A stretch of DNA of 64,000 bases from a virus. Positions 2,790 through 19,045 of the stretch are shown in pieces. The stretch lies in IMG/VR virus record IMGVR_UViG_3300032213_001988, positions 32,001-96,000 of that record; one strand, given 5' to 3'. The position numbers were made by a program, and so were the translations under genes. The number at the start of each line of letters is the position of its first letter. Position 1 is the first letter of the stretch. The notes under the pieces are model-generated. The model saw only the letters and a program-made list of their open reading frames with translations. It was not told where the DNA came from and made no database searches.

Positions 2790-3128
2790 TTACTGTAGCT
2801 CCACCCAGGTTGTTAAGATTGCGTAGTCTAGAAGATCTCCTTGTGGAGTTTCTCTATCTTCATCACAGACTGTCAAGTCTCTTTCGCCCGGGAGGTAGCC
2901 ACAGTAGCCTTGCGTCACTGTTGCAGTGTCGATTGATCCGTATCCGTTACCTAATGAAAATACTAAACCTTCGCGTTGAATTGCAGATGCAAGCGCACGA
3001 CGGACAACCTCATTTTCGATATCTACGTGCGCATCAGTGTAGAATATGTACGCAGCGTCGGTTTTAGGCTCGTAGCCCTCACCTTCCCATATAGACCATA
3101 AGGACTGGCCTGCTCTTGAATCTCGCAT
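2790..3128 (-). CDS. Hypothetical protein, probably leaderless
   Basis: TACAAT lies 6 nt upstream of the ATG; coupled to whiB. Confidence 0.7.
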   Translation of the reverse strand: MRDSRAGQSLWSIWEGEGYEPKTDAAYIFYTDAHVDIENEVVRRALASAIQREGLVFSLGNGYGSIDTATVTQGYCGYLPGERDLTVCDEDRETPQGDLLDYAILTTWVELQ

Positions 3129-3211
3129 GTATACATTGTATCTTGAGTCTCGCTCGTTTGCGCAGGAAACACCGGTATTTTTTAGACGTGAAGATATATG
3201 GACCCAGGCGT

Positions 3212-3226
3212 GAAAGTGTCTCTAAT
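3212..3226. promoter_or_regulatory. 15-bp element GAAAGTGTCTCTAAT (exact copy at 28723-28737, variant at 54483-54495)
   Basis: Exact repeat seen by eye; two of the three sites are intergenic. Confidence 0.4.
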
Positions 3227-3243
3227 GACGACTGAGCGCCCTG

Positions 3244-3771
3244 CTATAGGTTGTTAAACGTGCCTAAGTATAGGTTGCCGTTAACGTCAGGCCATAGGTA
3301 CTGATAATGAGGAGGGCGATAGCCAGGGTCTTCTTCCCAGCCAAACTGGCTATACCAGCTGTAATCTTTGCGTAAAAGTGACACACGGTGCGTGGACGCA
3401 ACCTGTTCAAACTTATCTCTGTCTGCCATCCAGCCAGGAAAGACTAGCTCTGGAGAGATTAACTTGCGCTCAACTGCAATATCAAATGTGCCGTAGATCT
3501 TGCCAAGCATTGTAGACTTGTAGCCGCGCTTACGCCACTCGAAGTACGTCGCTGCAAGATAAGAGACTAGCACGGCTTCGTGTCCGCGCCACATGTGCGC
3601 AACAGGATGATTAACCCAACCTTTAGGGTCACGAAACTCGCCCGCAGGATTAAGCTTAGTTAAGGCTAGTAAACACTGCCAGCCTTCTAAGGTTTGCTTG
3701 TGAAGGCGCTTGTTATCAAGCTCAGCAGCAATGCGCTCGAACGAATCGGTCTGTTGCATAAACGTTTGCAT
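3244..3771 (-). CDS. Pyrimidine-dimer DNA glycosylase-like protein (MSMEG_6728 / endonuclease V-like)
   Basis: MQTF...LDNKRLHKQTLE...GWVNHP...MWRGHE...EWRKRGY. Confidence 0.75.
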   Translation of the reverse strand: MQTFMQQTDSFERIAAELDNKRLHKQTLEGWQCLLALTKLNPAGEFRDPKGWVNHPVAHMWRGHEAVLVSYLAATYFEWRKRGYKSTMLGKIYGTFDIAVERKLISPELVFPGWMADRDKFEQVASTHRVSLLRKDYSWYSQFGWEEDPGYRPPHYQYLWPDVNGNLYLGTFNNL

Positions 3772-3812: not shown

Positions 3813-4086
3813 TGCCCTTGCTATATGGGTCAGTATTGAGATCGTCTAGGTTAAGAGGATCAACGTCATACTGAACCTCATCTGCCTCCATGTTTGCGTA
3901 TATTCCTACTATAGTAATATCTCCACATGAGGCACAGACGTTAATCTCGCCTGTCTTTAGCTCATCTGGAACTGTCACCGCAGTTAGCTTAGATATTAAA
4001 CTTCCATCGTCTCCAACAGATTCTGGCTCCCACTGTGTGTTCTCTTCAAGATAACACTTCTCGCACTGCGGATAGGCTTTTGTCAT
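3808..4086 (-). CDS. Small Cys4 (Zn-binding) hypothetical protein
   Basis: CEKC...CASC; ATGA coupling to upstream gene. Confidence 0.7.
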   Translation of the reverse strand: MTKAYPQCEKCYLEENTQWEPESVGDDGSLISKLTAVTVPDELKTGEINVCASCGDITIVGIYANMEADEVQYDVDPLNLDDLNTDPYSKGT

Positions 4087-5318
4087 TCGTAGCGCTTCTT
4101 TGCTGCGTGCCTTGAGAAGCCCTTATCAGTGTCTATAAGCCATTCACGATCTCCGATTAGTTCACCCTGGGGTCCGTTAGGTTCCCCACTCAGAGAGGCA
4201 ACTACGGCATCTCCTAGCCACTTAGCAGCGTGCACTGGAACTGCCTTTCCCCACGTAGCTTGCATCGCAGAGTAGTCCTTAGCACCTTCAATGTCCCAAT
4301 CGTCTGGCAGACCTTGCATGCGTGCACACTCGCGGTGAGTAAGAAGTCGCGGTTCAGTTGGGTGAACAACATGATCTAACGCAGAGCCAGTAAGCACGTT
4401 ACACCAGTGATCTTCCTTCCAGCGATACGGCTGAGAAAACCCAAGTTTATACTGCTTGCGTACAACACGCGCAGATATGTCGACCCAACGTTGAGGAAAC
4501 TTGCCATCATTCATTTCAACGGCCTTCTTTATGGCTCCGCCAAGATCTCCGTTCCCTGGCCACCCGTCATTTCCAATGATGTCAAACACCTCTTGAATTC
4601 TCTGTGAGTGAATCGTGTCCTTGCCAATGTGCCCGTTTACCTTGCCGTTTTTTGAGCGCAAGGACTTAGTAAACTTAGAGTGTTTTTCAATGTAAGGCTG
4701 CGCCTCCCACTGTTGTGGAAGATGCGCAAGATCACCTATGATGTCCATGATCTTAGGGAATTCCTTAGGCTCTGTCACCTGCGCACCAAACTTTAATCCT
4801 TTGCGTACCGCAACCCAGAAGTAACGTGGTCGATACGAGAATCCACCAAGTTGAAGATTGTTTTGTTTTACGTGATATAAGTCGTATTTCTTACCAGAGA
4901 TCTCTTCTACCATAAGACGATACTTGTTCATCGTCTCTCTCCCTTGTGTATAGGCTTGCTGCACGCACTCAAACACAATAATCTTTGGCGCAACTCGCCC
5001 TGCGTATCTCATAAAGGCGCGCGTATGCTCGTGCGCTGCAGAATCAGGACCACGATTTGCAGGACCAGACCAGACTGACCAACCAGAGCATGGAGGACAG
5101 CCAACGACAGCATCAACCTTGTGAACTGGCCACTCGTTTGCGTCATCTGAGAAAAATGTGCTCCACTTATTGCCTAGATGATGACGATTAGCTTCTGCAA
5201 CTGCGTTGCCAAAGTTAAGTGTGCCCGTGCGATTTGTCATTTCCATTCCAGCCTGCACAAGGCCTAAGCTCATGAAACCTGCAAGCCCGTTGCAGTCAGT
5301 AAATGTTGGTGTAGTCAT
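4083..5318 (-). CDS. Divergent C5-cytosine DNA methyltransferase homolog (SAM motifs degenerate)
   Basis: Motif IV GCPPCSGWS, VI FECV, VIII YRPRYF, IX RLLTHRECARMQGLPD, X WGKAVP; motif I reads DCNGLAGFMSLG. Confidence 0.8.
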   Translation of the reverse strand: MTTPTFTDCNGLAGFMSLGLVQAGMEMTNRTGTLNFGNAVAEANRHHLGNKWSTFFSDDANEWPVHKVDAVVGCPPCSGWSVWSGPANRGPDSAAHEHTRAFMRYAGRVAPKIIVFECVQQAYTQGRETMNKYRLMVEEISGKKYDLYHVKQNNLQLGGFSYRPRYFWVAVRKGLKFGAQVTEPKEFPKIMDIIGDLAHLPQQWEAQPYIEKHSKFTKSLRSKNGKVNGHIGKDTIHSQRIQEVFDIIGNDGWPGNGDLGGAIKKAVEMNDGKFPQRWVDISARVVRKQYKLGFSQPYRWKEDHWCNVLTGSALDHVVHPTEPRLLTHRECARMQGLPDDWDIEGAKDYSAMQATWGKAVPVHAAKWLGDAVVASLSGEPNGPQGELIGDREWLIDTDKGFSRHAAKKRYE

Positions 5319-5368
5319 AAAGTATCTCCCGTAGTAGCCACGGAAGGACTGTATACTGGCTTTTAAGC

Positions 5369-5692
5369 TTAAGGCTGCTCTAGGGGAGCAGTTTTATTGC
5401 TTTTTTCAGCCTCAAGTTGTCCTACCTCGTATCCACACCCAGCGTAGCCTGCAATATCAATCCAAGTATCAGGCTGAAAACCAGACTTTGACCCATAGCG
5501 AGCAAGTTTAAGCCCTACCATCATCATTGCAACGTCTTCGCGTGTAAAGTTGTAGTTAGTGATAACACTCCACACCTTTGCGATACGTTCAAAGTTCTCT
5601 TCTGGTCCTCCGTATTGAACGTCACGCTCGCCGGCAATAATTCTTGCCGCCTCGCGTAACGCCTCAACACGTGGTTTATTTTCCTGGCTCAT
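5369..5692 (-). CDS. DUF6378-like all-alpha nucleotide-modification-associated protein
   Basis: EAARIIAGERDVQYGGPEENFERIA..W...DVAMMM..LKLAR...DTWIDIAGYA. Confidence 0.75.
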   Translation of the reverse strand: MSQENKPRVEALREAARIIAGERDVQYGGPEENFERIAKVWSVITNYNFTREDVAMMMVGLKLARYGSKSGFQPDTWIDIAGYAGCGYEVGQLEAEKSNKTAPLEQP

Positions 5693-5694
5693 CG

Positions 5695-5904
5695 CTAAAC
5701 TCTCACCTTGACTTTACAGTCTGCTGAAAACGTTAAGTCCATTGGTCCTTCTTCTCCACAGAAAATAAACATTTCTATGTCAATTTTTTCTTTTATAGAA
5801 TCGTAATCTTCTACTTTAAAATAAGAACATATTCTTTCTATAAGCTTTCCTTCAATTTGTTCTTTTGTTTTTCCAATAATCTGAAAAGTTATGGTTGCTC
5901 TCAT
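5695..5904 (-). CDS. AT-rich hypothetical protein, 69 aa
   Basis: Coupled to neighbours; about 22% GC over 5761-5880 (hand count). Confidence 0.55.
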   Translation of the reverse strand: MRATITFQIIGKTKEQIEGKLIERICSYFKVEDYDSIKEKIDIEMFIFCGEEGPMDLTFSADCKVKVRV

Positions 5905-6323
5905 TATTTGATCCTTCTTTCTAACTTGTATGGTGAATAGTGAACTCCGTCAAGAAAAGGCTTCTTGTCGTCGTTTGAGCGAATAATAATATCTCCGCTT
6001 CTTATTGCAACTACTATACCTCTCCGTCCGTTGTGCATTGCGCCCGTTGAGTCGCTGAAGGCGTCGTTCATTACGCGCACCTCTTCACCGACTGTTAAGA
6101 AACCCGCCTGAGCAGGTACCCAAACCTCGTCCTTTGGTGGATCAACAAGCGAGTGGTTAAGCGCAAGTTTGCTAAATACCTCAACGGCAGACTTTGCATG
6201 CTCTGGTTTTAGCTCAAGCGCCTTCCATGTGTCTAGTAGCTCAAGAACAGCCTTGCCAACAACAACACGAACTTTTGCTGAGACAAACTGTTCTCTTGCC
6301 CATTCCTCATTTATATCTGGCAT
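5904..6323 (-). CDS. Hypothetical protein with SH3/KOW-like C-terminus
   Basis: GGAG RBS; VGEEVRV...NGRRGIVVAIRSGDIII. Confidence 0.7.
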   Translation of the reverse strand: MPDINEEWAREQFVSAKVRVVVGKAVLELLDTWKALELKPEHAKSAVEVFSKLALNHSLVDPPKDEVWVPAQAGFLTVGEEVRVMNDAFSDSTGAMHNGRRGIVVAIRSGDIIIRSNDDKKPFLDGVHYSPYKLERRIK

Positions 6324-6324
6324 T

Positions 6325-6795
6325 TTACCCCTCCACTACTGGTCTGCACTTTGCGCAGACGTCTGGCGTCTTGCCAACGCCAACATCGTCAATTGCCCTT
6401 GAGCACATCGCGCACTTGACGCCGATGTCCTTTACCTTATATCCATTTAACTGACGCTGCTTATTCTTTTCCATCTTTTCAAGATAGAACTTGTTAAGCT
6501 GCTCGTCTGTTCCTCCCGCCGCAACGATGATGTTTGCAACAAAGTGTAGAACGTCAACAGCTTCCTTAACAATCTCTTCGCGGTCTGCGTAAGGCTTATC
6601 GTGCTGCCAAGGCTTCCACGAAATTGCCTGCCGCATCTCTGCAAGCTCATCGTCGATGGCTAACATGTTCCAGCGCATGTACTCAACAAGACGGCGGATA
6701 TTCGCGTCCTTGTCGCCTTCCATCTCTTCGTAGTTAATGTAGTAGACGTCCTTCTGCAGGTCGCGTGTCTTCTTTAGCCAGCTATCAAACAGCAT
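6325..6795 (-). CDS. All-alpha dimeric dUTPase/dCTPase (T4 gp56-like) with C-terminal Cys4
   Basis: DELAEM...WKPW...KEAVDVLHF...Y.EKMEKNKQRQ..GY; CAMC...CAKC. Confidence 0.8.
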   Translation of the reverse strand: MLFDSWLKKTRDLQKDVYYINYEEMEGDKDANIRRLVEYMRWNMLAIDDELAEMRQAISWKPWQHDKPYADREEIVKEAVDVLHFVANIIVAAGGTDEQLNKFYLEKMEKNKQRQLNGYKVKDIGVKCAMCSRAIDDVGVGKTPDVCAKCRPVVEG

Positions 6796-7804
6796 ATACT
6801 GCTCCTTTTATGTTAAGTGTTCTTTCTAAGTTGTGCAGTGCTTCTTCCTTGCCCGGTGAGTTAGCTAAGTAGGCGCTACTCTGAGTTCTTGACAGATCGT
6901 ATCTTTCCTGTGGTGTCATATCCTCAATCGTTGCTGCAAGGTACCTCCAAGAATTGCCAATTGCAGACGTGCTTGTCCAAAGTGACGCGATTGGCGTTGC
7001 AGTGTTCATTGCTTGGATATAACGATACGTCCACCAGGTTCTATCCTTGTGCGGGGATATAAGTGCACCAATAGACTGCCTGATCTGTTCTTCAACCTGT
7101 GAGTCAGTCCAGCCCTTGTTCCACTTCATTGGCATGGCCGGATAGTTTAAGGTTGAAAGCTTTTTCTTTGTCCACGGTGAATCATGACTATCTGCTACCC
7201 ATCGCGCAGTTCTATCTGTTACACCCTGCGTGTTTTTCTCGACGATATACGCATCAAGGTTTACTCCGTGCAGTGATGCAGCAGCTCCTTCAGGCAGTTG
7301 GTCACTGGCGCTTTGTTTTGTGTCCCAAGGAAGAACAGGGCACAATGTAGTTGGCCATGTTTCATTTAGTAGAAACTCAACAACGGCAAGCATCTCATTT
7401 GATCTTGCAACCGCAAGACGGTATCCCTTGCGGTTCTTGTAGAACTCCTTTGTAAGGTTTCCGTTCCAGGTGCTGATTGATGTCAAACTCGATCTAATCT
7501 GCACAGGATTAGGCGCGTCAATAAAAAACCTAAGCTTATCTGTACCCTTAAGCAGATCAATAAGGTGTAGTGCTCCATACGCGTAGTTTGCGCTTAAACT
7601 TGTTAACGGAGAGATGCCAACAAGAACTGAGTCGTAGTAGTCCAGGTGTTGAGCTTCCCACGTAATATCTGGCTCAAGCATCACGACTTGATGCCCTGCG
7701 TCAGTAAGAACCTTGTCAACAAGACCTGCAAAAGATAGCGAGCGCTTGTTTGCACTGGTTGATACCTGTGGCGCAGACATACCTGTAATAAGAACGCGAC
7801 TCAT
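6785..7804 (-). CDS. GT-B glycosyltransferase, T4 beta-glucosyltransferase-like (paralog 2)
   Basis: VLITG..LTDAGHQV..YDSVLVGISPL..FFID; VEEQIRQSIGALISP..WWTYRYIQAM. Confidence 0.6.
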   Translation of the reverse strand: MSRVLITGMSAPQVSTSANKRSLSFAGLVDKVLTDAGHQVVMLEPDITWEAQHLDYYDSVLVGISPLTSLSANYAYGALHLIDLLKGTDKLRFFIDAPNPVQIRSSLTSISTWNGNLTKEFYKNRKGYRLAVARSNEMLAVVEFLLNETWPTTLCPVLPWDTKQSASDQLPEGAAASLHGVNLDAYIVEKNTQGVTDRTARWVADSHDSPWTKKKLSTLNYPAMPMKWNKGWTDSQVEEQIRQSIGALISPHKDRTWWTYRYIQAMNTATPIASLWTSTSAIGNSWRYLAATIEDMTPQERYDLSRTQSSAYLANSPGKEEALHNLERTLNIKGAVYAV

Positions 7805-9006
7805 GCATCGGTACCGTCTGCGTTTAACTTAACGCCCTTGTCCTCGCGTAGTGCGCGCGCAATGATGCGTTCACAGTGATCCTTAAACTGGTCATACGTT
7901 CCGATGTAAGGGCGTAACGCGTCAGCCTGTGCCTTTGCTGCTGCAACTAGCTCTGTATCTGACATCTTTTCAACGTCTGCGATGGTTAACTTATAGGCAT
8001 CACCTAACGGATCACCTTCGCCTTTATCGGTAACGAGAATAGATCCAATGTGCGCTGCGTAGAGGAAGCGCGAACGCCACCAACCTGAACCTGCGTGTGG
8101 ATACGGTGGAGAAAGAATTCCCCAACGAGTGTTGTAATACTCAAGTACTTCCTGCTCTGTATCAAGACGCTTTCCACCAAGCTTACGAATAAGTTTACGA
8201 CTACCAATAATTTCAACAGCCCAGTCTGGTTTCTTACGACCTAGCCATTCATCGTGTGGCATTAGTGCGCCAAGCACCCACGCACGATTCTTTTCTGTCG
8301 ATGGAGTTACAGCTGCGAGCGTATCGTTAACCACTACACTAGGGTCCAGTGCCTCAATGGGACCGACTTCTTTTGGCATACGTTTACGAACACCGGTGCG
8401 GTCACCCCACGCATACATCGGACAAACTGGAACCATACCAGCTTCCCAGCGGCGGTCAATCATGTCTGTTGCTGCCTGCACAAGACGTTTTTCGTAAGGC
8501 TGAACGTTTTCGTCTGTGTCCATCATGTAGTAACGTTCAATGTAGCATTTCTTCGCCGCAACTGGATCTAATACACGAACACGTTCTAACGCTGCCTCGA
8601 TATCTGCGCGACTAAAGTAGGTTGCGCCTTCTTCACCGCGATGCTCTGTTCCAACAAGCAGATGCTTATAGAGCATTGAAGGCTTTTTCATCATAGCGCG
8701 AGCGCCATTGAACACAGTATTAAACTGCCAATCATCAAAAAATCCAACCGCAGGCAAGCCTGAGGATAAAGTATAGAGAGCGCCCATAGCGCCTTGTCGT
8801 CCATTTAGCGAGTTCAACGGAGCAAGGTTAACCCAAGCAACATCGTATGAGGACAAATCCTCGCCAGGCGTTACCTTACGCCAGTCAACTTCATGACCTA
8901 AATCTGTTAATGCCTTTACAATTAACGCAGGCACATCAATCTTTTGTATTGTGCGTCGTTCTGTGTTAATCTGTAACGCAGTAAAACCAGTCATCAAGAT
9001 TTTCAT
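7801..9006 (-). CDS. GT-B glycosyltransferase, T4 beta-glucosyltransferase-like (paralog 1)
   Basis: MKILMTG..LTDLGHEV..YDVAWVNLAPLN..FFDDW; WGILSPPY..WWRSRF..LVTD; AAGGAG RBS. Confidence 0.65.
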   Translation of the reverse strand: MKILMTGFTALQINTERRTIQKIDVPALIVKALTDLGHEVDWRKVTPGEDLSSYDVAWVNLAPLNSLNGRQGAMGALYTLSSGLPAVGFFDDWQFNTVFNGARAMMKKPSMLYKHLLVGTEHRGEEGATYFSRADIEAALERVRVLDPVAAKKCYIERYYMMDTDENVQPYEKRLVQAATDMIDRRWEAGMVPVCPMYAWGDRTGVRKRMPKEVGPIEALDPSVVVNDTLAAVTPSTEKNRAWVLGALMPHDEWLGRKKPDWAVEIIGSRKLIRKLGGKRLDTEQEVLEYYNTRWGILSPPYPHAGSGWWRSRFLYAAHIGSILVTDKGEGDPLGDAYKLTIADVEKMSDTELVAAAKAQADALRPYIGTYDQFKDHCERIIARALREDKGVKLNADGTDA

Positions 9007-9030
9007 ACTACTCCTTAAATAATTGCTGGA

Positions 9031-9060
9031 TCATTACCCATGCTTGTGCATGGGTAATGA
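9031..9060. terminator. Perfect 13-bp hairpin between ssb-like gene and glycosyltransferase operon
   Basis: tcattacccatgc-ttgt-gcatgggtaatga; no U-tract on the minus strand. Confidence 0.55.
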
Positions 9061-9076
9061 TACCAGACAATCGTTG

Positions 9077-9631
9077 TTAGAACGGTGCAGCAGGTGGTGC
9101 AGCAGGCGCTGGAACTGATGCAGCAGCGGCAGGCGCTGGTGCAGGAGCAGGCGCAGCGGCAGGCGCTGGTGCAGGGGCAGGTGCAGGCGCAGCTGCCACT
9201 ACAGGTGCAGCAGCTGATGCTGTTGCAGTGTAGTACATCTTGATTTCGTTCTTCTTAGAGCCGTTCCACGTGCGAGAACCAATCTGCGCGCGGAAGGCAC
9301 GATTTTGCAGTGCTGCCTCAATAGCAGCGTTGCTTGGTGAAGTTGCGAAGTACTCACGGCCAAGGCCTAGAGCTGCCATCTTACGGAAGAACATTCCGAG
9401 TGCTGCAGGACTGTCTGGTGTAACAACAAGGTTATCCCAAACACGACGCTTAGCGTGCGCGCCACCTGTAACTTGCGCTGTTATCGCAAACATTGTCTTA
9501 CCAGATTGTGCAACCTTTGCAGTTGCTTCAATTACGATTAAATCGTAGTCTCCATCGGGAAGCGGCTCAAAATTACCACCACCGACATCTCCAGCGTCCT
9601 TTACAAGGTCGCCCCAGTTGAGTGAACTCAC
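9077..9631 (-). CDS. ssDNA-binding protein (DUF669-like)
   Basis: FEPLPDGDY..I..A...SGKTM..GAHAKRRVWDNL; Pro/Ala tail ending PF. Confidence 0.8.
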   Translation of the reverse strand: MSSLNWGDLVKDAGDVGGGNFEPLPDGDYDLIVIEATAKVAQSGKTMFAITAQVTGGAHAKRRVWDNLVVTPDSPAALGMFFRKMAALGLGREYFATSPSNAAIEAALQNRAFRAQIGSRTWNGSKKNEIKMYYTATASAAAPVVAAAPAPAPAPAPAAAPAPAPAPAAAASVPAPAAPPAAPF

Positions 9632-9665
9632 GGTTATCCTTTCAATAGTGCGCTAACCAATTTGG

Positions 9666-10436
9666 TTAGGACGCGGCTTTCTTTGCTTTGGCTTCTGTCT
9701 TTTCGCCAAAAATCATGTCTAACATGCGCTCAATGCCAAGGTCTTGTTGTTCAACAATTTTACCAAGGCGTCCTTGAACACGCTCACCAGCTTCAAACTC
9801 GTCTGTTCGTTCGACGTACATACGACGAACTTTATACGGAGCTTGCAGTGGATCTGGGTTAGGAAAAGTCTCGACGTTGATTGCGCCAAGAATGTCGTAA
9901 AAGTATGGTGCCTGAATAGCAAGTTGACCCTGTAGGTACGGACGCATACGCCCGTCCTGGCCTGGTCGTGCCATAGCAGTAAGCACAACAGCTTCTAACG
10001 GTTGAGTTGGGTGCATTGTAAGGTCACGTAGGTCACGCAAAAGTGCGCCCATGTGACGAAGCAACTCGCCCCACTGTTGCATCTTCATCTGCTCTGTACC
10101 TGCAATTGAATCCATGCACTTCACTTGAAGCTCAGAGATAGAATCAATGATAAGAGATTTGAACTGATGCTTTCCAGTTTGTAACCACTGGAATGTTTTG
10201 ATAACAACGTCGTAGTCACGAACATTTACTACGACAGTGTCCCATGTGCCATCTGCGACTGGTGGTTCTTCGCGCAGAGGGTCCCAGTACCTTACGGTGA
10301 TAGGTAGGAATCGGTGCCCACCTTCAACGTCGAGCATGAGACGAGGATAGGGTGCAGTTACGGCAAAAGTTGACTTACCAACCTTTGACTCGCCATACAC
10401 CATGATAGTCAGCGAACGCTGTACTTCATTTGACAT
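9666..10436 (-). CDS. AAA_24/Sak4-like ATPase recombinase
   Basis: VYGESKVGKST Walker A, LDVEGG, IIDSISE. Confidence 0.8.
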   Translation of the reverse strand: MSNEVQRSLTIMVYGESKVGKSTFAVTAPYPRLMLDVEGGHRFLPITVRYWDPLREEPPVADGTWDTVVVNVRDYDVVIKTFQWLQTGKHQFKSLIIDSISELQVKCMDSIAGTEQMKMQQWGELLRHMGALLRDLRDLTMHPTQPLEAVVLTAMARPGQDGRMRPYLQGQLAIQAPYFYDILGAINVETFPNPDPLQAPYKVRRMYVERTDEFEAGERVQGRLGKIVEQQDLGIERMLDMIFGEKTEAKAKKAAS

Positions 10437-10439
10437 ACG

Positions 10440-11375
10440 TCACTCACTTCCTTTCTTCTCTTCGATGTGGTAATACCCGTATGGATCGGATGATTCATAC
10501 GCCTCGCTAAGTGCTTGTTCGGCGGCGCTTCCGTCGTCAAACATTGGGCATATAGCGAAAAATTGACATTTCCATTTGCAATCACGACTTGGTCGTGGAT
10601 ACGCAACAAGCTGATGAGATGATCCATCGTCTAAGGCTTGACGCACGTTGAGCATATCAGATAGTGTTCCATGAATACGTTGCCAGAAGTTACGTAACGC
10701 AAAAACATTGTGTCGAACTTCCATCTGCTCATAAAAAGGTGGTCGTGCATTTGCAGAGCGTTTTACCTTCTTAAGCATTGTAAAGATTCCGCCTTCAGAA
10801 CGTTCGCCTTCTTTGTTCTGTGCAGTCTCAAGCATCATATATGTAAGGATCTGCTCATTCATGTGCGCCATCGCCGCAAAGTCTGTGAATGACCCTCCAA
10901 CAGTCTTAAAGTCACGGAACATACGCACGCCGTCAGCCTTACGACGAACACGCATATCAATCTTGCCTTGAAGAATAACCTTGCCATCAAACAACGGCAT
11001 CTCGATAATTTCTTCTGTAGAGATCATCTCTAGCTCAGCATCAATTCCATTTTCTTCAATCCACTCAAGATATCCTTCGAGCATGATGCGCCCAAGCTCA
11101 GCCTCAGCGTCAAGATCATACGTATCTCTAATCTGCGCTTCTAGGTCTGCCTTATCCTTTGCAATAAGAGCAGAGTGCGCCTCAAGAAGAGGTATTCCTT
11201 TTGAGTAGTAGTCATCAAGCGCCTGGTGAATGCGAGAACCAAGCGCTAACGCACCAGTCTTTGACTCTGTGCGTGGACGTAAACGACGGTAGTAGCTTAG
11301 CCACCACTTACGTCGACAATCCTTAAATGTTTGGATCTCTGAGTTTGATATGCGTATTGGTTCTACTACGCTCAT
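10440..11375 (-). CDS. PD-(D/E)XK exonuclease (RecB/Cas4-like)
   Basis: ISNSEIQTFKDCRRKW, GSRIH, GKID, DFKT, C-terminal CKWKCQF..C. Confidence 0.85.
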   Translation of the reverse strand: MSVVEPIRISNSEIQTFKDCRRKWWLSYYRRLRPRTESKTGALALGSRIHQALDDYYSKGIPLLEAHSALIAKDKADLEAQIRDTYDLDAEAELGRIMLEGYLEWIEENGIDAELEMISTEEIIEMPLFDGKVILQGKIDMRVRRKADGVRMFRDFKTVGGSFTDFAAMAHMNEQILTYMMLETAQNKEGERSEGGIFTMLKKVKRSANARPPFYEQMEVRHNVFALRNFWQRIHGTLSDMLNVRQALDDGSSHQLVAYPRPSRDCKWKCQFFAICPMFDDGSAAEQALSEAYESSDPYGYYHIEEKKGSE

Positions 11376-13177
11376 AGCTTTCCTGCCTTGTCGTCTTTAA
11401 GTAGTGATAACAATTGTGCCTTATCGCGAACGATTTGCTCAAAGTTATCAGCCTTGGTTTCAAGGACTTGAATTACGCGTTCCTCAATAGTTCCTTCAGT
11501 AACATAGTCACTAATGATAATTGAGTCATGAATCTCAGAACCAATGCGGTGCACACGGTCAAGAGCTTGCTTGTGATCAACAAGTGACCAAGGGCGCTGC
11601 AGCATGATTAAACGACGTGCTGCAGTTAGCGTGATTCCAACACCACCAGCCTGCGCTGTAAAAAGTATCCACTTGATCTTGCCAGCCTGAAAATCATCAA
11701 CCGCTTGTTGACGTTCATCCTCAGACTGAGCACCAGTGATGAGACCATGTGGAATTTTTTCCTTAGTCATTTCTGCACTAAGTAAATCTATAAGTTGGCG
11801 TGATACCGCGCATACTGCAACTGAGTCATCGCCAAAGTCGCCGTTCTTAATATCATCCATAACTGCATCAACCTTGCATGATGGGCCAATAAGTGTTACC
11901 TTGCTCTCACCGGTTGTCTCATCAACGCTCATTTCAGCGAAAGAACTTGCAAACTGCAGCAACCTTATTGTTTGTGTTAAAGGGCTAGGTGCTGTAACTG
12001 ACTCACCGTCCTCGAGTTCAGCAATCATAAGATCACGCATCTGGTCATAAGCTTTCTTTTGCTTAGTGGACATTTCTACGTCCTTGCGTTCAAACATCAT
12101 TTCTGGAAGCCAAGGAAGAACCTTTTGCTTAAGCATACGACGCATACGCGGATTTATCGCCGCGTAGAACTCTTGTTCCATGTGAGGCTTTACACCTAGA
12201 ACCATCATTCCGCCAAAGGCATTCATCATTGTGTTAATCATGCGGTCAATCCAACGCGTCTTACTTGGCCATTCATCTGGTGATAACCAGTGCAATATAG
12301 ACCACATATCTAATACGTTATTGGCGATAGGTGTTCCTGTAAGAGCAAACCGAATATCAGCGTCACCTGTTGCCGCCCAAAGAGCACGAGTTTGTTTTGA
12401 CTTAGGCTCCTTAGATCTGTGGATCTCATCAGCAACGACTGCCTTAAAGTCAATTGTGTTTAATTCACGCAGGTGAACCTCGCAGCGATTCTCTGAAACT
12501 CTATCATCGTGGCCACCGCACTCTGGGCACTTTGCAAGTGCAATTGAACCGTAGCCAGAAAGACGAGAATGCGAGCGCAGAGATTCCCAGTTAATGACGT
12601 ATACGTCAGCCTCTTCCTCAAAAATCTTGCGACGTTGAGTTGCAGAACCTTTAATAACTTCTACATCAACTCCAGGCCACCAGCGTTCAAACTCACGCTT
12701 CCAGTTTTTCTTCAATGTATTAGGGCAAACGATTAACGCAGGAAATACGTCTTCACCGCGATCTTGTAGTTCTTTAAGTGCACGGATCGCCTGTGCTGTC
12801 TTGCCAAGGCCAGGTTCATCTGCAAGCAGCGCACGTCGGGCTACTGCTAGAAACTTTACGCCAGCTCGCTGGTGCGGGAATAGATCCTCGTTAGAGCCGT
12901 CCTCAATTACTTCTAGTTCACGTAGTTCGTTTGCTGGCGTAATTCTACTTGAAACCTCCTGCCCTGCCCATACGGCTAACCTTGGGCCGATTACGAGATC
13001 ATCGCGAAACGTTGAGCGCAAAGCTAGGCAGGTTGCCCAGGATGTAGGAACGCGCCATTGCTGCTCTTTAGGGTCCCACTTAGAACCAGGGATACTTTTG
13101 CAAAGCTCCTTAAAGCGCCACTCTGTATGGATAACTACATTCTTACCCAGTTCATCGAGCTCTACGTTTACTGGCAC
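11372..13177 (-). CDS. SNF2-family DEAD/H helicase
   Basis: ADEPGLGKT, ADEIH, LTGTP, AGGVGITL, QALDRVHRIG. Confidence 0.9.
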   Translation of the reverse strand: MPVNVELDELGKNVVIHTEWRFKELCKSIPGSKWDPKEQQWRVPTSWATCLALRSTFRDDLVIGPRLAVWAGQEVSSRITPANELRELEVIEDGSNEDLFPHQRAGVKFLAVARRALLADEPGLGKTAQAIRALKELQDRGEDVFPALIVCPNTLKKNWKREFERWWPGVDVEVIKGSATQRRKIFEEEADVYVINWESLRSHSRLSGYGSIALAKCPECGGHDDRVSENRCEVHLRELNTIDFKAVVADEIHRSKEPKSKQTRALWAATGDADIRFALTGTPIANNVLDMWSILHWLSPDEWPSKTRWIDRMINTMMNAFGGMMVLGVKPHMEQEFYAAINPRMRRMLKQKVLPWLPEMMFERKDVEMSTKQKKAYDQMRDLMIAELEDGESVTAPSPLTQTIRLLQFASSFAEMSVDETTGESKVTLIGPSCKVDAVMDDIKNGDFGDDSVAVCAVSRQLIDLLSAEMTKEKIPHGLITGAQSEDERQQAVDDFQAGKIKWILFTAQAGGVGITLTAARRLIMLQRPWSLVDHKQALDRVHRIGSEIHDSIIISDYVTEGTIEERVIQVLETKADNFEQIVRDKAQLLSLLKDDKAGKL

Positions 13178-13206
13178 CTATTGGTCCTCTCGTCGTTACG
13201 TAATAC

Positions 13207-13217
13207 ATACTATCAGG
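13207..13217 (-). promoter_or_regulatory. Extended -10 promoter variant CCTGATAGTAT for helicase/recombination operon
   Basis: Variant of the early promoter, followed by the same AACGACGA leader and RBS. Confidence 0.55.
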
Positions 13218-13276
13218 ATTTGCACTTTTGTAAATACTATTTATGCTTAGTATCTATGGAAATAATATATCACGTA

Positions 13277-13732
13277 TTACTGCAATAAACGCACTGGCTT
13301 CCAGCCTGTTTTTACAAGTTTAAGTAGACCGTGCCTTATCGCGTCAAGTGCGTGACCTTCTCCACCTTTGTGCCAGTACTCAAGTTTCTTGAGCTTAGGA
13401 TTGTCAAACATTGCCTTTGCATCTGCCGGTGATTGAAAGTAGATGTCATCTGGCTTTCTACCTGCGTCCATAAGGCACTGCTTAAGGATGCCAATTTGCT
13501 CAAGCGAGTACGGCGCCTGTGAGTTGCGAACCGTCTGCGCGTTAATGGTAAATCGCTCACACACAACGTCTAAAGTGTCCCCGTAAGAGGCTAGAGTGTC
13601 CCGTATAGGCTTGGCGTATTCCTCCTGTTGGAATTCACCAGACCAGATTAAAACCGGCTCCTGGCCGCTCTCAAGGCTAAATAAAGCCATTCCAGTGGAT
13701 TTCCCTGGGTCTACTGCAAGAACGTATCTCAT
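13277..13732 (-). CDS. RuvC-like Holliday junction resolvase
   Basis: VLAVDPGKSTG, VVCERF, HALDAIRH. Confidence 0.75.
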   Translation of the reverse strand: MRYVLAVDPGKSTGMALFSLESGQEPVLIWSGEFQQEEYAKPIRDTLASYGDTLDVVCERFTINAQTVRNSQAPYSLEQIGILKQCLMDAGRKPDDIYFQSPADAKAMFDNPKLKKLEYWHKGGEGHALDAIRHGLLKLVKTGWKPVRLLQ

Positions 13733-15555
13733 TAGTATTTATCTCCCCAAGTCTCCATTGGACCGTCAATACCGGCGGTAAGTGGGACGTCCCAACCCTC
13801 AGTTGTAGTCATGCATTGTTTAACAACTTGCATAATCTCCTGGGCGTCCTCGCGTGGTGCGTTAAGAACAATTTCGTCGTGTACTGGCACGATAAGAAGC
13901 TCGGTTAGATCTGCCTGGTCAAGTTTAATAAGATTTGCCTTGAACACCTCGGCAGCTCCACCTTGAATGAGATAGTTAACAAGTGTGTACGCGCGATCTT
14001 CATCACAAGGTAGGCGTCGACCTGTCCAGGTGTAGACGTATCCTTGTCCCTCTGCCTTCAAGCGTCTCATTCCAGCATCTTCAATTTGACGTTGAAAGAG
14101 CGCCATGCCAGGGAAGCGTAGATCAAACGCGTCTGATGTTTGGCGCATCTGTGGCTCAGTAACTCCTGCTGTTAACGCCTGCTTAGCAACTCCTGCTCCG
14201 TAGAGACGTCCATACACAGTTCCCTTAATTAGGTTACGGCGCTTATCTGACCGTTGCATCGTTGGATCTCCGTAGATTTCACGACCAATTTCAGTGAAAG
14301 GATCTGACCCTGTTGCATCTGCACGGTTAAAGAGCGTGATGAGATTTGGGTCCTGTGAGAGGGAGGCAAACATTCTAAATTCAACCTGGTCAAGGTCTGA
14401 GGTAATGATGACATGATCCTTATCCTTTGGTATGAATGCGGTGCGAACAGTTGCGTCGCCTTTAGGCAACGTCTGTAGCGCAGGGTTTTGGATTGACATG
14501 CGGGAGGTACGAGCGCCAAGCGTCTTTACAGAGGGATGTACAAAACCGTTCACGTTGTCATTGATAAAGTTTGCAAAGTATGTGTTGGCAAGCTTATCTG
14601 CCTTGCGTTGTTTTAGCACCACATCAGCGAGATTCTTTACGTCAGCGTTGCCTGAGATTGCAAGAAATGCAAGTTGGTCCTTATCGGCAGATTTTTGACC
14701 AGATGCTGTAAATGTTGTGATCTCTGCACCAAGCGACTCGAACAAGCGAACAAGTTGAATGTTACTTGTGATTGATACTCCGTTATACGTTTTCTTTGCC
14801 CAGTCTTTTACGGACTCTGCATACGCAGTTAGTTCATCAAACTTCTTCCTTGAGTAGTCAAGATCAATACGTGCGCCGTTAATCTCCATGCGGGTGACAA
14901 TCTTGCGCGCAGCCATTTCCAATTCATATGCACGATGATAAGGCTGTCCTGGCCCGCACTTCTCCCAGAACTGTTCCCATATGCGCATTGTTAAAACTGT
15001 GTCAAGTGCACCGTAAGCCCAATAAGGCTGGAAGTTTGTAGGGACAGTTCCCCATGTCCAGCCGTTTGTTGCTAGTGATGTATCAAGAGTTTCCTGCATT
15101 GCAGCTGCGCGTCCATCAACGTAAAGTGACGCAAGACGTTTTAACGCACCTGAGCCAAGAGGATCAATAATGTGCGCCATAATCATCGTGTCGTGTGCGC
15201 GTTCCCACGGCATCTTCCAGGTTGAGTGAACATCAAACCAACGAGCTTCAAACGCAATGTTATGGCAGACTATTGGGCCATCAAACTTATCCATAGCCTC
15301 GTAAAAAACACCAGACCATTCCTTCCAAGGAATTGCCCAACCTGTTAATCCATCGCCTACCTGCACTAAACGTAGTTGCCCGTGCCAAGGAGATAGAGCG
15401 TCCTTACGCTCACCACCTGGATTCTCACCAGTTTCAGTGTCAATTGAAATTGCGTTGTGAGGGCGACGTTCACCTAGCCACGCAATAAACTCGCGCGCGG
15501 TATCAACGTTATCAACGAGATGTAGTTTTACGTCGCTTAGTCCTGTAGTTGTCAT
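13732..15555 (-). CDS. polA: Family A DNA polymerase (3'-5' exo plus pol domains)
   Basis: DTET, HNIAFE, motif A SDLDQVEFR, motif B KGTVYGRLYG, motif C VHDE. Confidence 0.92.
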   Translation of the reverse strand: MTTTGLSDVKLHLVDNVDTAREFIAWLGERRPHNAISIDTETGENPGGERKDALSPWHGQLRLVQVGDGLTGWAIPWKEWSGVFYEAMDKFDGPIVCHNIAFEARWFDVHSTWKMPWERAHDTMIMAHIIDPLGSGALKRLASLYVDGRAAAMQETLDTSLATNGWTWGTVPTNFQPYWAYGALDTVLTMRIWEQFWEKCGPGQPYHRAYELEMAARKIVTRMEINGARIDLDYSRKKFDELTAYAESVKDWAKKTYNGVSITSNIQLVRLFESLGAEITTFTASGQKSADKDQLAFLAISGNADVKNLADVVLKQRKADKLANTYFANFINDNVNGFVHPSVKTLGARTSRMSIQNPALQTLPKGDATVRTAFIPKDKDHVIITSDLDQVEFRMFASLSQDPNLITLFNRADATGSDPFTEIGREIYGDPTMQRSDKRRNLIKGTVYGRLYGAGVAKQALTAGVTEPQMRQTSDAFDLRFPGMALFQRQIEDAGMRRLKAEGQGYVYTWTGRRLPCDEDRAYTLVNYLIQGGAAEVFKANLIKLDQADLTELLIVPVHDEIVLNAPREDAQEIMQVVKQCMTTTEGWDVPLTAGIDGPMETWGDKY

Positions 15556-16026
15556 TTAATCCTCTAGTATCGTTACATCAATACTGCAATTTTTAAGATA
15601 ATCAATTGTAGCTTCTGGCTTTCGGTGAATTGCCTTACTGCCAACACGCATAACAACTCTTGCAACTCCTGAGTTAGACACAAGCTTTGCGCATTGTAGG
15701 CATGCTACGTCTGTTATGTATATTGTTCCACCTTCAATACGTGATCTATCAACGTATAAAAGAGCATTTGCTTCTGCATGAATTGACGGACACGTGTCAT
15801 ACATGTTATCTAGTGGTACAAGACCTTGCGCACGCGGGCACCACTCAATGCAGTCGCCCTCAACGTCAAGAGTTGCAGCAGGCCCATTATACCCGGTAGA
15901 CGCAACGCGCTGGTTGGAAGAAACTACAACCGCGCCAATCTGTGCACGAGAACAACGTGAACGTTTAGCAATGGTGTCTGCTACGTCCATCCATACCTTG
16001 TCCCATGAAGGTCTATCTAAGCTCAA
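15556..16026 (-). CDS. dCMP deaminase
   Basis: SWD..WM..A...RSRC..GAVV..TGYNG..HAEANAL..ACLQC. Confidence 0.9.
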   Translation of the reverse strand: MSLDRPSWDKVWMDVADTIAKRSRCSRAQIGAVVVSSNQRVASTGYNGPAATLDVEGDCIEWCPRAQGLVPLDNMYDTCPSIHAEANALLYVDRSRIEGGTIYITDVACLQCAKLVSNSGVARVVMRVGSKAIHRKPEATIDYLKNCSIDVTILED

Positions 16027-16256
16027 AACGGAACATCTCCCTTATCATCGTCATCATCAATGTGACCGTACTCGTCCATTCCTTCGTGAACTCCTGCAGC
16101 AAGAATATGCGCAACAATAGTTACAGCCTGTCGACGTGTAAAACCAGCACGCGTAAGTTCGCGATACATCTCATGCATCTGTAGTGCAGCCTCGCGCAAA
16201 GGACTTATATTAAAGTCCTCCTCGTTAAGACCGCCTTCTTTCTTATTGTCCGTCAT
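16023..16256 (-). CDS. Small acidic hypothetical protein
   Basis: Translationally coupled on both sides. Confidence 0.65.
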   Translation of the reverse strand: MTDNKKEGGLNEEDFNISPLREAALQMHEMYRELTRAGFTRRQAVTIVAHILAAGVHEGMDEYGHIDDDDDKGDVPF

Positions 16257-17134
16257 TATTTACTTTTCTTGTCTGCTTGCTTTTCATCCTTCTGTAAGTT
16301 ATTTAGAACAGCGCGTTTCATCGAGTCAGTATACCACTTCTCAGCGTCGTTAAGACGCGCATACGTTGGCTCACTCACAGTTGCCTGCATTGCAAGCATG
16401 GCAGATGACTTAACCTCGTTCCAGGTGCGTCCAGTGATTGCAGGAATTGTCGGGCTATGCAGTGCGTGTGCAAGCTTATCTGCTGAGGCGTAGTGCTGCT
16501 CATAAATGTGAAGTGATCCTACGTGGTGATTGTATGTTCCAGGCTCGATACCTAAAACAGATGCCATAGCAATTTGCACGCGAGTAAACTGGAAGAAGTC
16601 ATACGCTGCACCTAGCCATACATCGTTTGAGCGCATATACACACTCATGTTAAGCTTGTTATTACGAATACGGAACTGATGCAGGATTGTGCAAGGGTAG
16701 TCACGCTTTCGTTCCTGTAGGTCAAGCTGCGGGTTCCAAATTGTAACTACTGCCTGTCGTGTATCAGGGTCTTGCATAAGTCTGTCAATAATCATGTCGT
16801 ATTGCCCTGCAGTTCGAGGACCGTATGCTCCGTGAAATAAACCGTTGTCCTCCGCGTAGTTTGCAAACTGCGGGCCAACGGAGATAACTAAGTCTGGAAT
16901 AGTTACACCTGCAAGAAGTTGACACGCCTCAACCGCACCGATGCCAGGAACTGTTCCTCGACCAACCTCAAGAGGTAAGGTGTTAAACACGTTGTCAATG
17001 CGAATAATCGCATCCTCGATCTCAAGGGTCTTCATACCACGTGGAGCAACCTCCTTGCCGTGCTCAAGTACATGCTTAACAAGATCAACGTATCCGTTGA
17101 CTCCGTCTTCTATATTTATTATCGCAGTATCCAT
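16256..17134 (-). CDS. Thymidylate synthase homolog, dCMP-specific type (dCMP hydroxymethylase/methylase)
   Basis: YPCT (Cys148), MRSNDVWLGAAYD (Asp179 at the TS Asn position), GSLHIY. Confidence 0.8.
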   Translation of the reverse strand: MDTAIINIEDGVNGYVDLVKHVLEHGKEVAPRGMKTLEIEDAIIRIDNVFNTLPLEVGRGTVPGIGAVEACQLLAGVTIPDLVISVGPQFANYAEDNGLFHGAYGPRTAGQYDMIIDRLMQDPDTRQAVVTIWNPQLDLQERKRDYPCTILHQFRIRNNKLNMSVYMRSNDVWLGAAYDFFQFTRVQIAMASVLGIEPGTYNHHVGSLHIYEQHYASADKLAHALHSPTIPAITGRTWNEVKSSAMLAMQATVSEPTYARLNDAEKWYTDSMKRAVLNNLQKDEKQADKKSK

Positions 17135-18132
17135 GCGTCATCCTTTTCTTGTAGTGTAGCAACTCGTAGAATTGCATCTCCGTATTCTTCCTTGCTTTTG
17201 TTAAAGAACCTACGCACATACTGCGGGTGAGGCAGAACAGAGTAGTAGTCCTCGTGTACGGGAATTGACGCCAACGTCTTCTCCGCAAGACGCCCAAGAA
17301 CAACTATTCTTGGGAAACCTAACGTTCTCCATAACTTTAAGAAGGAGTCCTTCACACCTTCATCGTTTATATTGACGATGCCCACGGCACGCCAAAGCTC
17401 CTCGGACATTGCAGTAAGTAGATACTCCGCAGAGTTACCATCAACAGGCATAAACGGAAGTTTTGTTTCCTCGCCGTATTTCTTTACGATGTTACGCGTA
17501 TCTCCAATAAGCAGCACCTTCGGGCTTGGGTTTCCAATATAGTATGGAAAAGGCTCGAGCTTGGCTGCCATTAACTCAACCTGCTCCGCGCTATCAACTA
17601 TATACTTTGCAACCTCAGGTATAAGATCAATGCTGTCTGCTGGAGGCTCAATCTTTGCAATGATGTTTGATGAGCCACAGGCAATTTCATATTGTTTAAG
17701 AATATCACTGAGGTCATCTACGTCTACAAAGTCGTCGCCGCGAGAGGCAAGACGCTGCTGAATAACATCAAGAGGCTGATATAGCCAAAATTGAGCAACG
17801 CCACGAGACATAAGGAAGAGTTCAACCCAACGCCAACCGGCCTTGCCTAATAGACCATATCCATCCTTGTTTGTACTTGGGCGAAACTTAGGAGCGTATG
17901 TTACTTCGCCCCAGTGCCAACGATCTGATAATCCAATTTTATTAAACCAATTTATTGGTTCAATTGACATGACGTAGTCGTTTAACACCCAACGGCGTGT
18001 TTGTTCTTCAGGACGCCCCTTGTGAAAAAGACGCGTTGGAGTAGTTGCAAAGCGCTCGTTAAGCTCGTGCTCAACTGCAGCGATAAGAGAGCTCTTACCC
18101 GATGCGTCGGTACCTTCGATTACTATAAACAT
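17119..18132 (-). CDS. dNMP kinase fused to uracil-DNA-glycosylase-superfamily-like domain
   Basis: EGTDASGKSS P-loop, DRWHWGE; then GNPSPKVLLIGD..LPF..IVVLGR.A..HPQY. Confidence 0.7.
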   Translation of the reverse strand: MFIVIEGTDASGKSSLIAAVEHELNERFATTPTRLFHKGRPEEQTRRWVLNDYVMSIEPINWFNKIGLSDRWHWGEVTYAPKFRPSTNKDGYGLLGKAGWRWVELFLMSRGVAQFWLYQPLDVIQQRLASRGDDFVDVDDLSDILKQYEIACGSSNIIAKIEPPADSIDLIPEVAKYIVDSAEQVELMAAKLEPFPYYIGNPSPKVLLIGDTRNIVKKYGEETKLPFMPVDGNSAEYLLTAMSEELWRAVGIVNINDEGVKDSFLKLWRTLGFPRIVVLGRLAEKTLASIPVHEDYYSVLPHPQYVRRFFNKSKEEYGDAILRVATLQEKDDAWILR

Positions 18133-18721: not shown

Positions 18722-19045
18722 CTACTCATTTTCTTGTCCTCTGTCTATGCGCATTGGATTTTCTGTTGCATACTTTATACAAAAATTCATAACTTCTAGC
18801 ATTTTCATAGATACGTCAGGTCCGGCTAGAGTTTGCGCGTCCATGAACTCTGCAACTCCTCTAAAGTATAGGCTTACTTTATTAAAGTAATCTTCAATAG
18901 ATGTAGGGTCTGCCTCTAGGGCTTCCTTGTGAGAGCATTCTGAGTAGCTTAACGCCTCGTTGTCCTTATAGACTACTCTGTATATCTTAGGGTACCCGTT
19001 ATCACCTTCGTCGATTATTGTTGTGTATCTTACCTCAAGTGCCAT
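18722..19045 (-). CDS. Hypothetical protein, 107 aa
   Basis: Coupled to end of tail fibre gene. Confidence 0.7.
   Translation of the reverse strand: MALEVRYTTIIDEGDNGYPKIYRVVYKDNEALSYSECSHKEALEADPTSIEDYFNKVSLYFRGVAEFMDAQTLAGPDVSMKMLEVMNFCIKYATENPMRIDRGQENE

Follow-up and report, generated by a model that had tools for sequence, protein, structure and literature searches.

Glycosylated 5-hydroxymethylcytosine (hmC) has been studied mainly in the T-even phages of enterobacteria. In T4, the pathway to glucosyl-hmC comprises gp56 (dCTPase), gp42 (dCMP hydroxymethylase), gp1 (dNMP kinase), the deaminase Cd and the alpha- and beta-glucosyltransferases (AGT and BGT). Other enzymes of the thymidylate synthase (TS) fold include the CMP hydroxymethylases MilA and BcmA, the dUMP hydroxymethylases of phages SPO1 and SP8, and the enzyme of Xanthomonas phage XP12, in which cytosine is completely replaced by 5-methylcytosine. 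Here we analyse a gene module in a 64,000-nucleotide stretch of viral DNA (the window), bases 32001–96000 of the IMG/VR record IMGVR_UViG_3300032213_001988. The record is 131,518 bp long, has direct terminal repeats and is rated 100% complete; among phage records, nucleotide similarity to the window was confined to DSL-LC01, an Actinomycetia phage assembled from a metagenome, which matches at 73% over the helicase–recombinase part and is syntenic with the whole region. An initial annotation of the window had proposed that a T4-like pathway of cytosine substitution and glycosylation operates in this phage. The present analysis supports that proposal: each enzymatic step has a candidate gene, and the key candidates pass tests of diagnostic residues or of fold. 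On balance we think it probable, judging from the genes, that the DNA of this phage carries glycosylated hmC in place of cytosine, and the gene set is predicted to be a variant of the anti-nuclease camouflage strategy of T4.

The TS homologue is a predicted dCMP hydroxymethylase

The only TS-family gene in the genome encodes a protein that scores far under the trusted cut-offs of every NCBIfam thymidylate synthase (ThyA) model; no second TS, ThyX or dihydrofolate reductase (DHFR) was found in the genome. The best match of the TS homologue in the Protein Data Bank (PDB) was the CMP hydroxymethylase MilA (E 5e-23). The protein was aligned with T4 gp42, SP8 dUMP hydroxymethylase, the XP12 TS-fold enzyme and E. 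coli ThyA. Columns E69, Y104, R126, C148, R168, S169, D171, H209 and Y211 were invariant; they include the catalytic Cys, the equivalents of Glu58, Arg166, Ser167 and Asp169, and the His and Tyr that bind ribose, and the phosphate-binding residues are kept as well.

Three positions in the alignment bear on the substrate and on the reaction. Asn versus Asp at position 177 of ThyA acts as the switch between uracil and cytosine (PMC8670742; PMC5175136). The TS homologue has Asp at this position, its AAYD aligning with T4 RND (D179) and with PFN of E. coli; Asp is also found in the XP12 enzyme, whereas Asn occupies this position in the two enzymes that act on uracil, SP8 dUMP hydroxymethylase and E. 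coli ThyA. A second Asp lies three residues before the catalytic Cys (Cys-3), in RDYPC, as it does in T4 (SDFMC), SP8 (KDRPC) and MilA (IDVAC), while E. coli ThyA has Leu (ALAPC) and the XP12 dCMP methylase has Asn (KNVPC). In the study of the T4 ternary complex, Asp at Cys-3 was proposed as a signature that distinguishes hydroxymethylases from the methyl-transferring TS, and the D145N substitution abolished activity (PMC6400193). Finally, the ribose pocket of the TS homologue contains Ser and Arg (RSND and PDTRQ), compared with Ala176 and Lys133 in MilA (RAND and PDSKR); Ser/Arg rather than Ala/Lys in this pocket goes with a preference for deoxyribonucleotides (PMC5175136).

The Pfam match of the TS homologue stops at position 222 of 266 and is followed by an unrelated extension. 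The lack of DHFR fits a hydroxymethylase, which regenerates tetrahydrofolate; XP12 has a DHFR gene beside its methylase. All 80 IMG/VR relatives, which are 63–100% identical, retain the DYPC motif as well as the specificity-determining Asp. Because of Asp at 177, Asp at Cys-3, the Ser/Arg pair and MilA as the best solved relative, we predict that the TS homologue is a dCMP hydroxymethylase; the first description of it as a dCMP-type TS holds up in this respect. Three other assignments were considered and rejected: a true thymidylate synthase on account of Asp at 177 and of the low scores against the NCBIfam ThyA models, a dUMP hydroxymethylase because this Asp is replaced by Asn in SP8, and an enzyme specific for CMP, like MilA, because of Ser/Arg.

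The same two positions are of interest in another phage. The enzyme of Pseudoxanthomonas phage PW916 that is annotated as 'deoxyuridylate hydroxymethyltransferase' (L006:283-1101) has Asp both at the ThyA-177 position and at Cys-3, and from these residues is more likely to be a dCMP hydroxymethylase.

Two GT-B-fold proteins form new families

The two putative glycosyltransferases (GTs) of the module, GT401 and GT339, had no match in Pfam, NCBIfam or the functionally named PHROG families. They are distant paralogues of one another, 20% identical from end to end (E 5e-8), and both have orthologues in DSL-LC01, at 33% and 30% identity, between which lies a gene for UDP-galactopyranose mutase. More than 200 metagenomic homologues were collected for each family, all of them without a Pfam domain. 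AlphaFold models built from the family alignments (pLDDT 86.6 for GT401 and 93.0 for GT339) are compact, two-domain GT-B folds, and with both models T4 BGT was ranked at the top of Foldseek searches against the PDB. In both families, the fourth strand of the N-terminal domain is followed by an invariant Asp, Asp96 (FFID) in GT339 and Asp91/Asp92 (FFDD) in GT401, which corresponds approximately in sequence position to the catalytic Asp100 of BGT (YYLFTD), as judged by collinearity and not by superposition. The two proteins are new sequence families with, according to the models, a compact BGT-like GT-B fold. Their initial description as BGT-like GTs therefore stands as regards the fold and the top structural match, and does not extend to sequence, there being no profile signal to BGT.

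The link between these proteins and hmC comes from the distribution and the setting of their genes. In the phage collection, the GT339 family was found in 14 records only, one of DSL-LC01 and 13 of Gordonia phages. These are the same phages that supplied the closest TS homologues, and all 14 records carry a TS homologue of the Asp type; in Gordonia phage Phendrix, for instance, both Asp residues are present. These phages also have the GT401 family, which is found besides in a Manatee Spring siphovirus and in other phages. The siphovirus has genes for a dCMP deaminase, an NTP-pyrophosphatase and a 'pyrimidine hmase' in which both Asp residues are present. In T4-like Aeromonas phages there are proteins that match the N-terminal third of GT401, and one such genome has a gp42 orthologue. 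Within the window, GT339 overlaps GT401 by 4 nucleotides, and the GT genes lie inside a nucleotide and replication operon, overlapping the gp56-like gene. From this context and the co-occurrence with Asp-type TS homologues, we infer that the GTs may act on hmC in duplex DNA, with UDP-glucose as a possible donor.

A side observation concerns Aeromonas phage 50AhydR13PP, a T4-like Tulanevirus, in which three tandem hypothetical proteins of about 350 residues are encoded downstream of motA (L093:2895-6164). The middle protein is 30% identical to the first 123 residues of GT401, and this genome encodes a true TS alongside an orthologue of gp42 (SDFMC...RND). The tandem proteins may be unrecognised hmC glycosyltransferases.

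The dCTPase-like enzyme and the kinase

The initial annotation of one gene as a dCTPase/dUTPase-like enzyme was borne out by a direct relationship with T4: BLASTP aligned the protein with the gp56 dCTPase at 31% identity over 107 residues (E 3e-11). The alignment includes the acidic metal-binding helices, IDDE..E and E.VD..HFV. The protein, which is MazG-like, scored 48 bits against PF08761 (dUTPase_2; cut-off 22.9), a profile that T4 gp56 itself matches, and it has a C-terminal CxxC...CxxC tail. It is predicted to be a dCTPase/dUTPase.

The stop codon of the kinase gene overlaps the start of the TS-homologue gene by 16 nucleotides. The N-terminal half of the kinase is a P-loop dNMP kinase that resembles thymidylate kinase (TMPK), with the motifs EGTDASGKSS and DRWHWG (the DRW motif), and is predicted to be an hm-dCMP kinase. 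Apart from PHROG, it gave weak matches to dTMP kinase and PPK2, and a search of PDB sequences to E 1 returned only the YorR kinase-like protein of SPbeta. Its first annotation as a dNMP kinase is therefore upheld in the form of a TMPK-like P-loop kinase (phrog_761), possibly outside the T4 gp1 family.

The C-terminal half of the kinase (approximately residues 190–337) forms a domain of its own, which the freshwater group and DSL-LC01 retain and the Phendrix orthologue lacks. It aligned with positions 4–135 of the 141 of the uracil-DNA glycosylase (UDG) profile PF03167 at a sub-threshold level (E 0.01, 16.4 bits; cut-off 24.3). A language model provided a further weak lead, with an atlas feature score of 0.83 to viral clusters that partly carry UDG. 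A family profile of this half had no match among PDB sequences, even at E 10. We treat a UDG-like domain as a lead for the identity of this half. The DNA that encodes it (17119–17565) specifies a UDG-like layout of motifs, VLLIGDTRN, LPFMPVDGNS and HPQYVRRF.

A divergent C5-methyltransferase-like protein

The methyltransferase (MTase) of the module, which had initially been described as odd, is indeed unusual: it matches PF00145 (81.6 bits; cut-off 22) over only part of its length and departs from the consensus in motifs I, IV, VI and X, where it has NGLAGF, PCS, ECV and GK (GKAVPV) instead of the canonical FxGxG, PCQ, ENV and GN. It retains the Pro-Cys nucleophile (PPC), the Glu of motif VI (FEC(V)), the RPR of motif VIII, and motif IX. 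A HMMER scan of 1.84 billion representatives yielded 136 clusters of this family at E <1e-30. In an alignment of 98 members, PPC, FEC(V) and RPR were near-invariant, and the consensus read QGFAGG, PCS, ESV and GK family-wide. Since the oddities are shared by the whole family, they mark a large divergent subfamily and not decay of the copy in the window. Phendrix gp106, at the same position of its module, is 35% identical to the window protein.

On an unrelated metagenomic contig (L091:1583-4003), genes for a sugar NTP_transferase, a dUTPase_2 protein and a divergent member of the C5-MTase-like family stand in a row, which suggests a recurrent link between gp56-like and MTase-like genes.

The altered motifs, and the position next to a gp56-like gene in unrelated phages, leave room for a reading of this protein as something other than an ordinary methylase. 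It may elaborate or exchange the 5-hydroxymethyl or glycosyl-hydroxymethyl group at the DNA level through Cys–C6 covalent catalysis and, together with the kinase–UDG-like fusion and the alternative gene cassette described below, represent an undescribed family of cytosine hypermodification. We offer this as speculation that is unlikely to prove correct. A search of the genome for TET/JBP enzymes found nothing, but the control genomes also gave nothing, so the result is uninformative.

Synteny and variation among related phages

In Phendrix, one block of genes runs in the order kinase, TS (with Asp), deaminase, polymerase, RuvC and helicase, and a second comprises GT401-like, GT339-like, two further GTs, MazG-like, a small open reading frame (ORF), MTase-like and WhiB genes. 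Among the 80 IMG/VR relatives, loci with enough flanking sequence have GT401, GT339 and a MazG-like gene after DUF669, except for one sub-group and for single losses or replacements of GT401.

In the exceptional sub-group of sister phages (L046:18168-20697 and L069:18145-20662; also L055, L038 and L035), the GT401/GT339/MazG cassette after DUF669 is replaced by genes for a protein of about 415 residues without a Pfam match, an APH-like phosphotransferase of about 253 residues (E 1e-5) and a HAD-like hydrolase of about 172 residues. A related 435-residue protein replaces GT401 alone in locus L076, and locus L058 is without GT401. The replacement cassette may carry out a different hypermodification chemistry from the same locus. 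A variable cassette at a fixed place fits diversification of the decoration on DNA.

Proposed pathway and alternative explanations

In the pathway that we propose, the gp56-like pyrophosphohydrolase would convert dCTP (and dUTP) to the monophosphate, which would keep dC out of phage DNA and feed the hydroxymethylase. The TS-fold enzyme would then hydroxymethylate dCMP at C5 with methylene-tetrahydrofolate. The translationally coupled TMPK-like kinase would phosphorylate hm-dCMP, and host NDP kinase would complete the synthesis of hm-dCTP. Meanwhile, the dCMP deaminase would divert part of the dCMP to dUMP for thymidylate synthesis by the host, draining the dCMP pool. Incorporation would fall to the phage family A polymerase, which would need to accept hm-dCTP. 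After replication, the two BGT-like GT-B enzymes would move a sugar from a host nucleotide sugar onto the hydroxymethyl groups. These two enzymes may differ in anomer or in sequence context, or may together assemble a disaccharide. What the analysis shows is the presence of the genes, their diagnostic residues, the folds, the synteny and the co-occurrence; we infer which substrates and which sugar are used, how far cytosine is replaced and that the modification protects against host nucleases.

Several observations weigh against this pathway. The Ser-x-Tyr half of the hydroxymethylase signature (Ser94-x-Tyr96 in T4 gp42) is absent from the TS homologue, which has Gly-Ala-Tyr; the proven SP8 dUMP hydroxymethylase likewise lacks it (Ala-Pro-Tyr), so Ser-x-Tyr is not universal among hydroxymethylases. 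Comparison of the GT family profiles with T4 BGT by hhalign gave a probability of <1%, which leaves the link to BGT structural only, and the BGT match of the GT401 model was tied with SenB and PimA, so that the acceptor is not readable from the fold. The window encodes no nucleotide-sugar enzyme. A Kyanoviridae phage has GT401-like proteins but no TS-family gene, and some relatives carry other genes in place of the GT and MazG genes. Finally, it is hard to see what the conserved C5-MTase-like gene would do in a phage with every cytosine already hydroxymethylated.

It is also possible, though we regard it as unlikely, that hmC is made and incorporated but does not end up carrying a simple sugar from the GTs. 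The hmC would either stay bare or be elaborated, for example by the MTase-like protein, and the GT folds would serve an acceptor other than DNA, such as host wall polymers or virion proteins. The GT-B fold leaves the acceptor open, most clearly in the tie of GT401 with SenB and PimA, and a separate gene for a GT2 protein with TPR repeats ends a structural operon in the window. The MTase-like gene travels with a gp56-like gene both in Phendrix and on the unrelated contig, and some relatives have the 415-residue protein, the APH-like kinase and the HAD-like protein in exchange for the GTs. Against such an arrangement stand the location of the GT genes within the nucleotide and replication operon and their overlap with the gp56-like gene, the Asp-type TS homologue in 14 out of 14 GT339 records, and the top rank of T4 BGT for both models.

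Less probable still is a partial replacement of cytosine, or a role of these genes in salvage of the nucleotide pool, with DNA that is mostly canonical and carries sequence-specific 5-methylcytosine made by the MTase-like enzyme. Purifying selection conserves a complete set of candidate dCTPase, hydroxymethylase, kinase and GT genes across 80 relatives and the cultured Gordonia phages, and the MTase-like family departs from the canonical motifs throughout (PCS, ESV and GK); these findings argue against such a role, even though a DNA C5-MTase-like gene makes sense only with unmodified C available and the region yielded neither a nuclease specific for host DNA nor an Alc-like function.

We consider very unlikely an XP12-type dCMP methyltransferase that leads to 5-methylcytosine DNA, with the MTase-like enzyme topping up methylation and the GTs acting elsewhere: the Asp at the N177 position is common to the XP12 dCMP methylase, N177D mutants of true TS make 5-methyl-dCMP (PMC8670742) and a C5-MTase-like gene is present, but in XP12 the Cys-3 residue is Asn, the C-terminal tail is still TS-like and a DHFR gene lies alongside, whereas the window enzyme has Asp at Cys-3 and an extension after its Pfam match ends (222/266), its genome is without DHFR, and its closest solved relative is the hydroxymethylase MilA.

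Organization of the module and predicted host

All the genes named in the initial annotation were recovered at their positions by Pfam, PHROG and structure models (Table 1). The module genes are all on the minus strand and tightly packed, with overlaps of 1–16 nucleotides, and form an upstream block (13.3–18.1 kb) and a downstream block (4.1–9.0 kb). As had been noted, the module is split around recombination genes: DUF669, AAA_24, PD-(D/E)XK, SNF2 and RuvC-like genes separate the two blocks, and this intervening segment is outside the modification chemistry. More widely, all long ORFs between 2249 and 22642 are on the minus strand and densely packed. The 139-residue protein of the downstream block was detectable in relatives whose flank extends that far. 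The DUF6378 gene has the same relative position in DSL-LC01; in the literature, DUF6378 was found in annotation lists only.

Table 1. Genes of the predicted cytosine-modification module and its surroundings, in window coordinates.
Feature	Coordinates	Strand	Basis
WhiB protein, 179 aa, with an extra C-terminal zinc-binding region	2249–2788	minus	PF02467 E 7e-15
C5-cytosine-methyltransferase-like protein, 411 aa	4083–5318	minus	PF00145 E 9e-23, residues 59–371 only
DUF6378 protein	5369–5692	minus	PF19905 E 3e-26
Two small proteins, 139 aa and 69 aa, inside the operon	5695–6323	minus	no family match
gp56-like all-alpha NTP pyrophosphohydrolase, 156 aa, predicted dCTPase/dUTPase	6325–6795	minus	PF08761 E 2e-12
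GT339, 339-aa GT-B-fold protein, candidate second hmC-DNA or sugar-extending transferase	6785–7804	minus	AlphaFold model and Foldseek
GT401, 401-aa GT-B-fold protein, candidate hmC-DNA sugar transferase	7801–9006	minus	AlphaFold model and Foldseek
DUF669, AAA_24 RecA-like ATPase, PD-(D/E)XK nuclease, SNF2 helicase	within 9077–13177	minus	Pfam
Recombination/replication block, including a RuvC-like gene	9077–13732	minus	Pfam, phrog_1981, DSL-LC01 annotation
Family A DNA polymerase with 3'-5' exonuclease domain	13732–15555	minus	PF00476 E 3e-54, PF01612 E 1e-5
dCMP deaminase, Cd-like	15556–16026	minus	PF00383 E 4e-18; ComEB-type E 3e-17
77-aa conserved protein between hydroxymethylase and deaminase	16023–16256	minus	no family match; in 75/80 related loci
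TS-family protein, predicted dCMP hydroxymethylase	16256–17134	minus	PF00303 E 4e-27
P-loop kinase, 337 aa	17119–18132	minus	phrog_761 'thymidylate kinase' E 1e-12, residues 1–151

The host is likely to be an actinobacterium because of the WhiB gene and the protein-level kinship with Gordonia phages and DSL-LC01, in agreement with the original assignment. A siphovirus-type particle is predicted from the tape-measure and minor-tail genes annotated in the syntenic DSL-LC01. The GC content of the window is approximately 47%, and DNA closely similar to this stretch is present in lake-water and freshwater metagenomes from 14 studies, which are publicly available as contigs only.

Genes that flank the module were also noted. 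Just downstream of it (2249–3771) are the WhiB gene and a gene for a DenV-like pyrimidine-dimer DNA glycosylase (PF03013, E 9e-14), both of which are present in DSL-LC01 as well. Directly upstream of the kinase operon (19045–20628), a 527-residue protein, probably a tail fibre, combines a collagen repeat with an intramolecular chaperone domain of the Peptidase_S74 type. The gene for the GT2 and TPR glycosyltransferase (1231–2307) is on the plus strand, opposite to the module, at the end of the upstream structural operon, and represents a second, separate glycosylation function.

Significance and comparison with known systems

If the proposed pathway is correct, abundant freshwater actinophages widely share a strategy of the T4 type that draws on a MilA/SPO1-like hydroxymethylase, a TMPK-like kinase, two new GT-B families and a PolA replisome; it would also operate in cultured Gordonia phages, where it is directly testable. 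It would explain annotations as 'thymidylate synthase', 'methyltransferase' and 'auxiliary metabolic gene' that are probably wrong. Restriction enzymes may fail to cut the DNA of such phages, as with T4 DNA, and other enzymatic procedures or sequencing could perhaps be hindered too; the new DNA glycosyltransferases and the variable cassette would be a source of new DNA chemistries and tools. A literature search that combined dCMP hydroxymethylase or hydroxymethylcytosine with actinophages found no description of such a pathway, which, given its incomplete coverage, is weak evidence of novelty.

Among the systems closest to this locus are those of Godonkavirus and related large Gordonia phages (GodonK, Phendrix, Sixama, Forza and GMA2) and of DSL-LC01, in which both blocks are orthologous and syntenic. 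They differ in annotation, their genes being listed as thymidylate synthase, methyltransferase and hypothetical proteins. In the paper on DSL-LC01, UDP-galactopyranose mutase and the MTase are treated as auxiliary metabolic genes, and hmC is absent from the discussion. They also differ in content: Phendrix has two extra GTs and a kinase without the C-terminal domain, and DSL-LC01 has the extra UDP-galactopyranose mutase.

Among TS-fold enzymes, the XP12 system of complete 5-methylcytosine replacement resembles the window module in its modification at the nucleotide level, in Asp at the N177 position and in an adjacent dCMP deaminase; it differs in its TS-like C-terminus, in Asn at Cys-3, where the window enzyme has Asp, and in a neighbouring DHFR gene, for which the window genome has no counterpart. 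The SPO1/SP8 dUMP hydroxymethylases share Asp at Cys-3 (SP8) but act on uracil and not cytosine, with Asn (SP8) in place of the window Asp. With the MilA/BcmA CMP hydroxymethylases, the similarity extends to both the Cys-3 Asp and the cytosine-specifying Asp (of MilA), MilA being the best match of solved structure; Ser/Arg in the window enzyme, in place of Ala176/Lys133, predicts a deoxyribonucleotide substrate instead.

The T4 pathway to glucosyl-hmC has the same logic as the one proposed here, and the same enzyme folds for each step. The phages themselves differ, since that of the window is an actinophage, of predicted siphovirus type, with a family A polymerase as opposed to the family B polymerase of T4. 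It adds a conserved C5-MTase-like gene and DUF6378, and is without a phage thymidylate synthase or DHFR. Its predicted hydroxymethylase, which groups with the enzymes of the MilA and SPO1 types, shares only 27–28% identity with gp42; its kinase is TMPK-like, apparently of another type than gp1, and fused to a possibly UDG-like domain; and its GTs are new sequence families without profile similarity to BGT or AGT. In common with T4, however, it has a gp56 relative that is detectable by BLASTP, a dCMP deaminase, GT-B enzymes for which T4 BGT is the best structural match, and a TS-fold enzyme that keeps the Cys and the equivalents of Asp145 and Asp179 of gp42.

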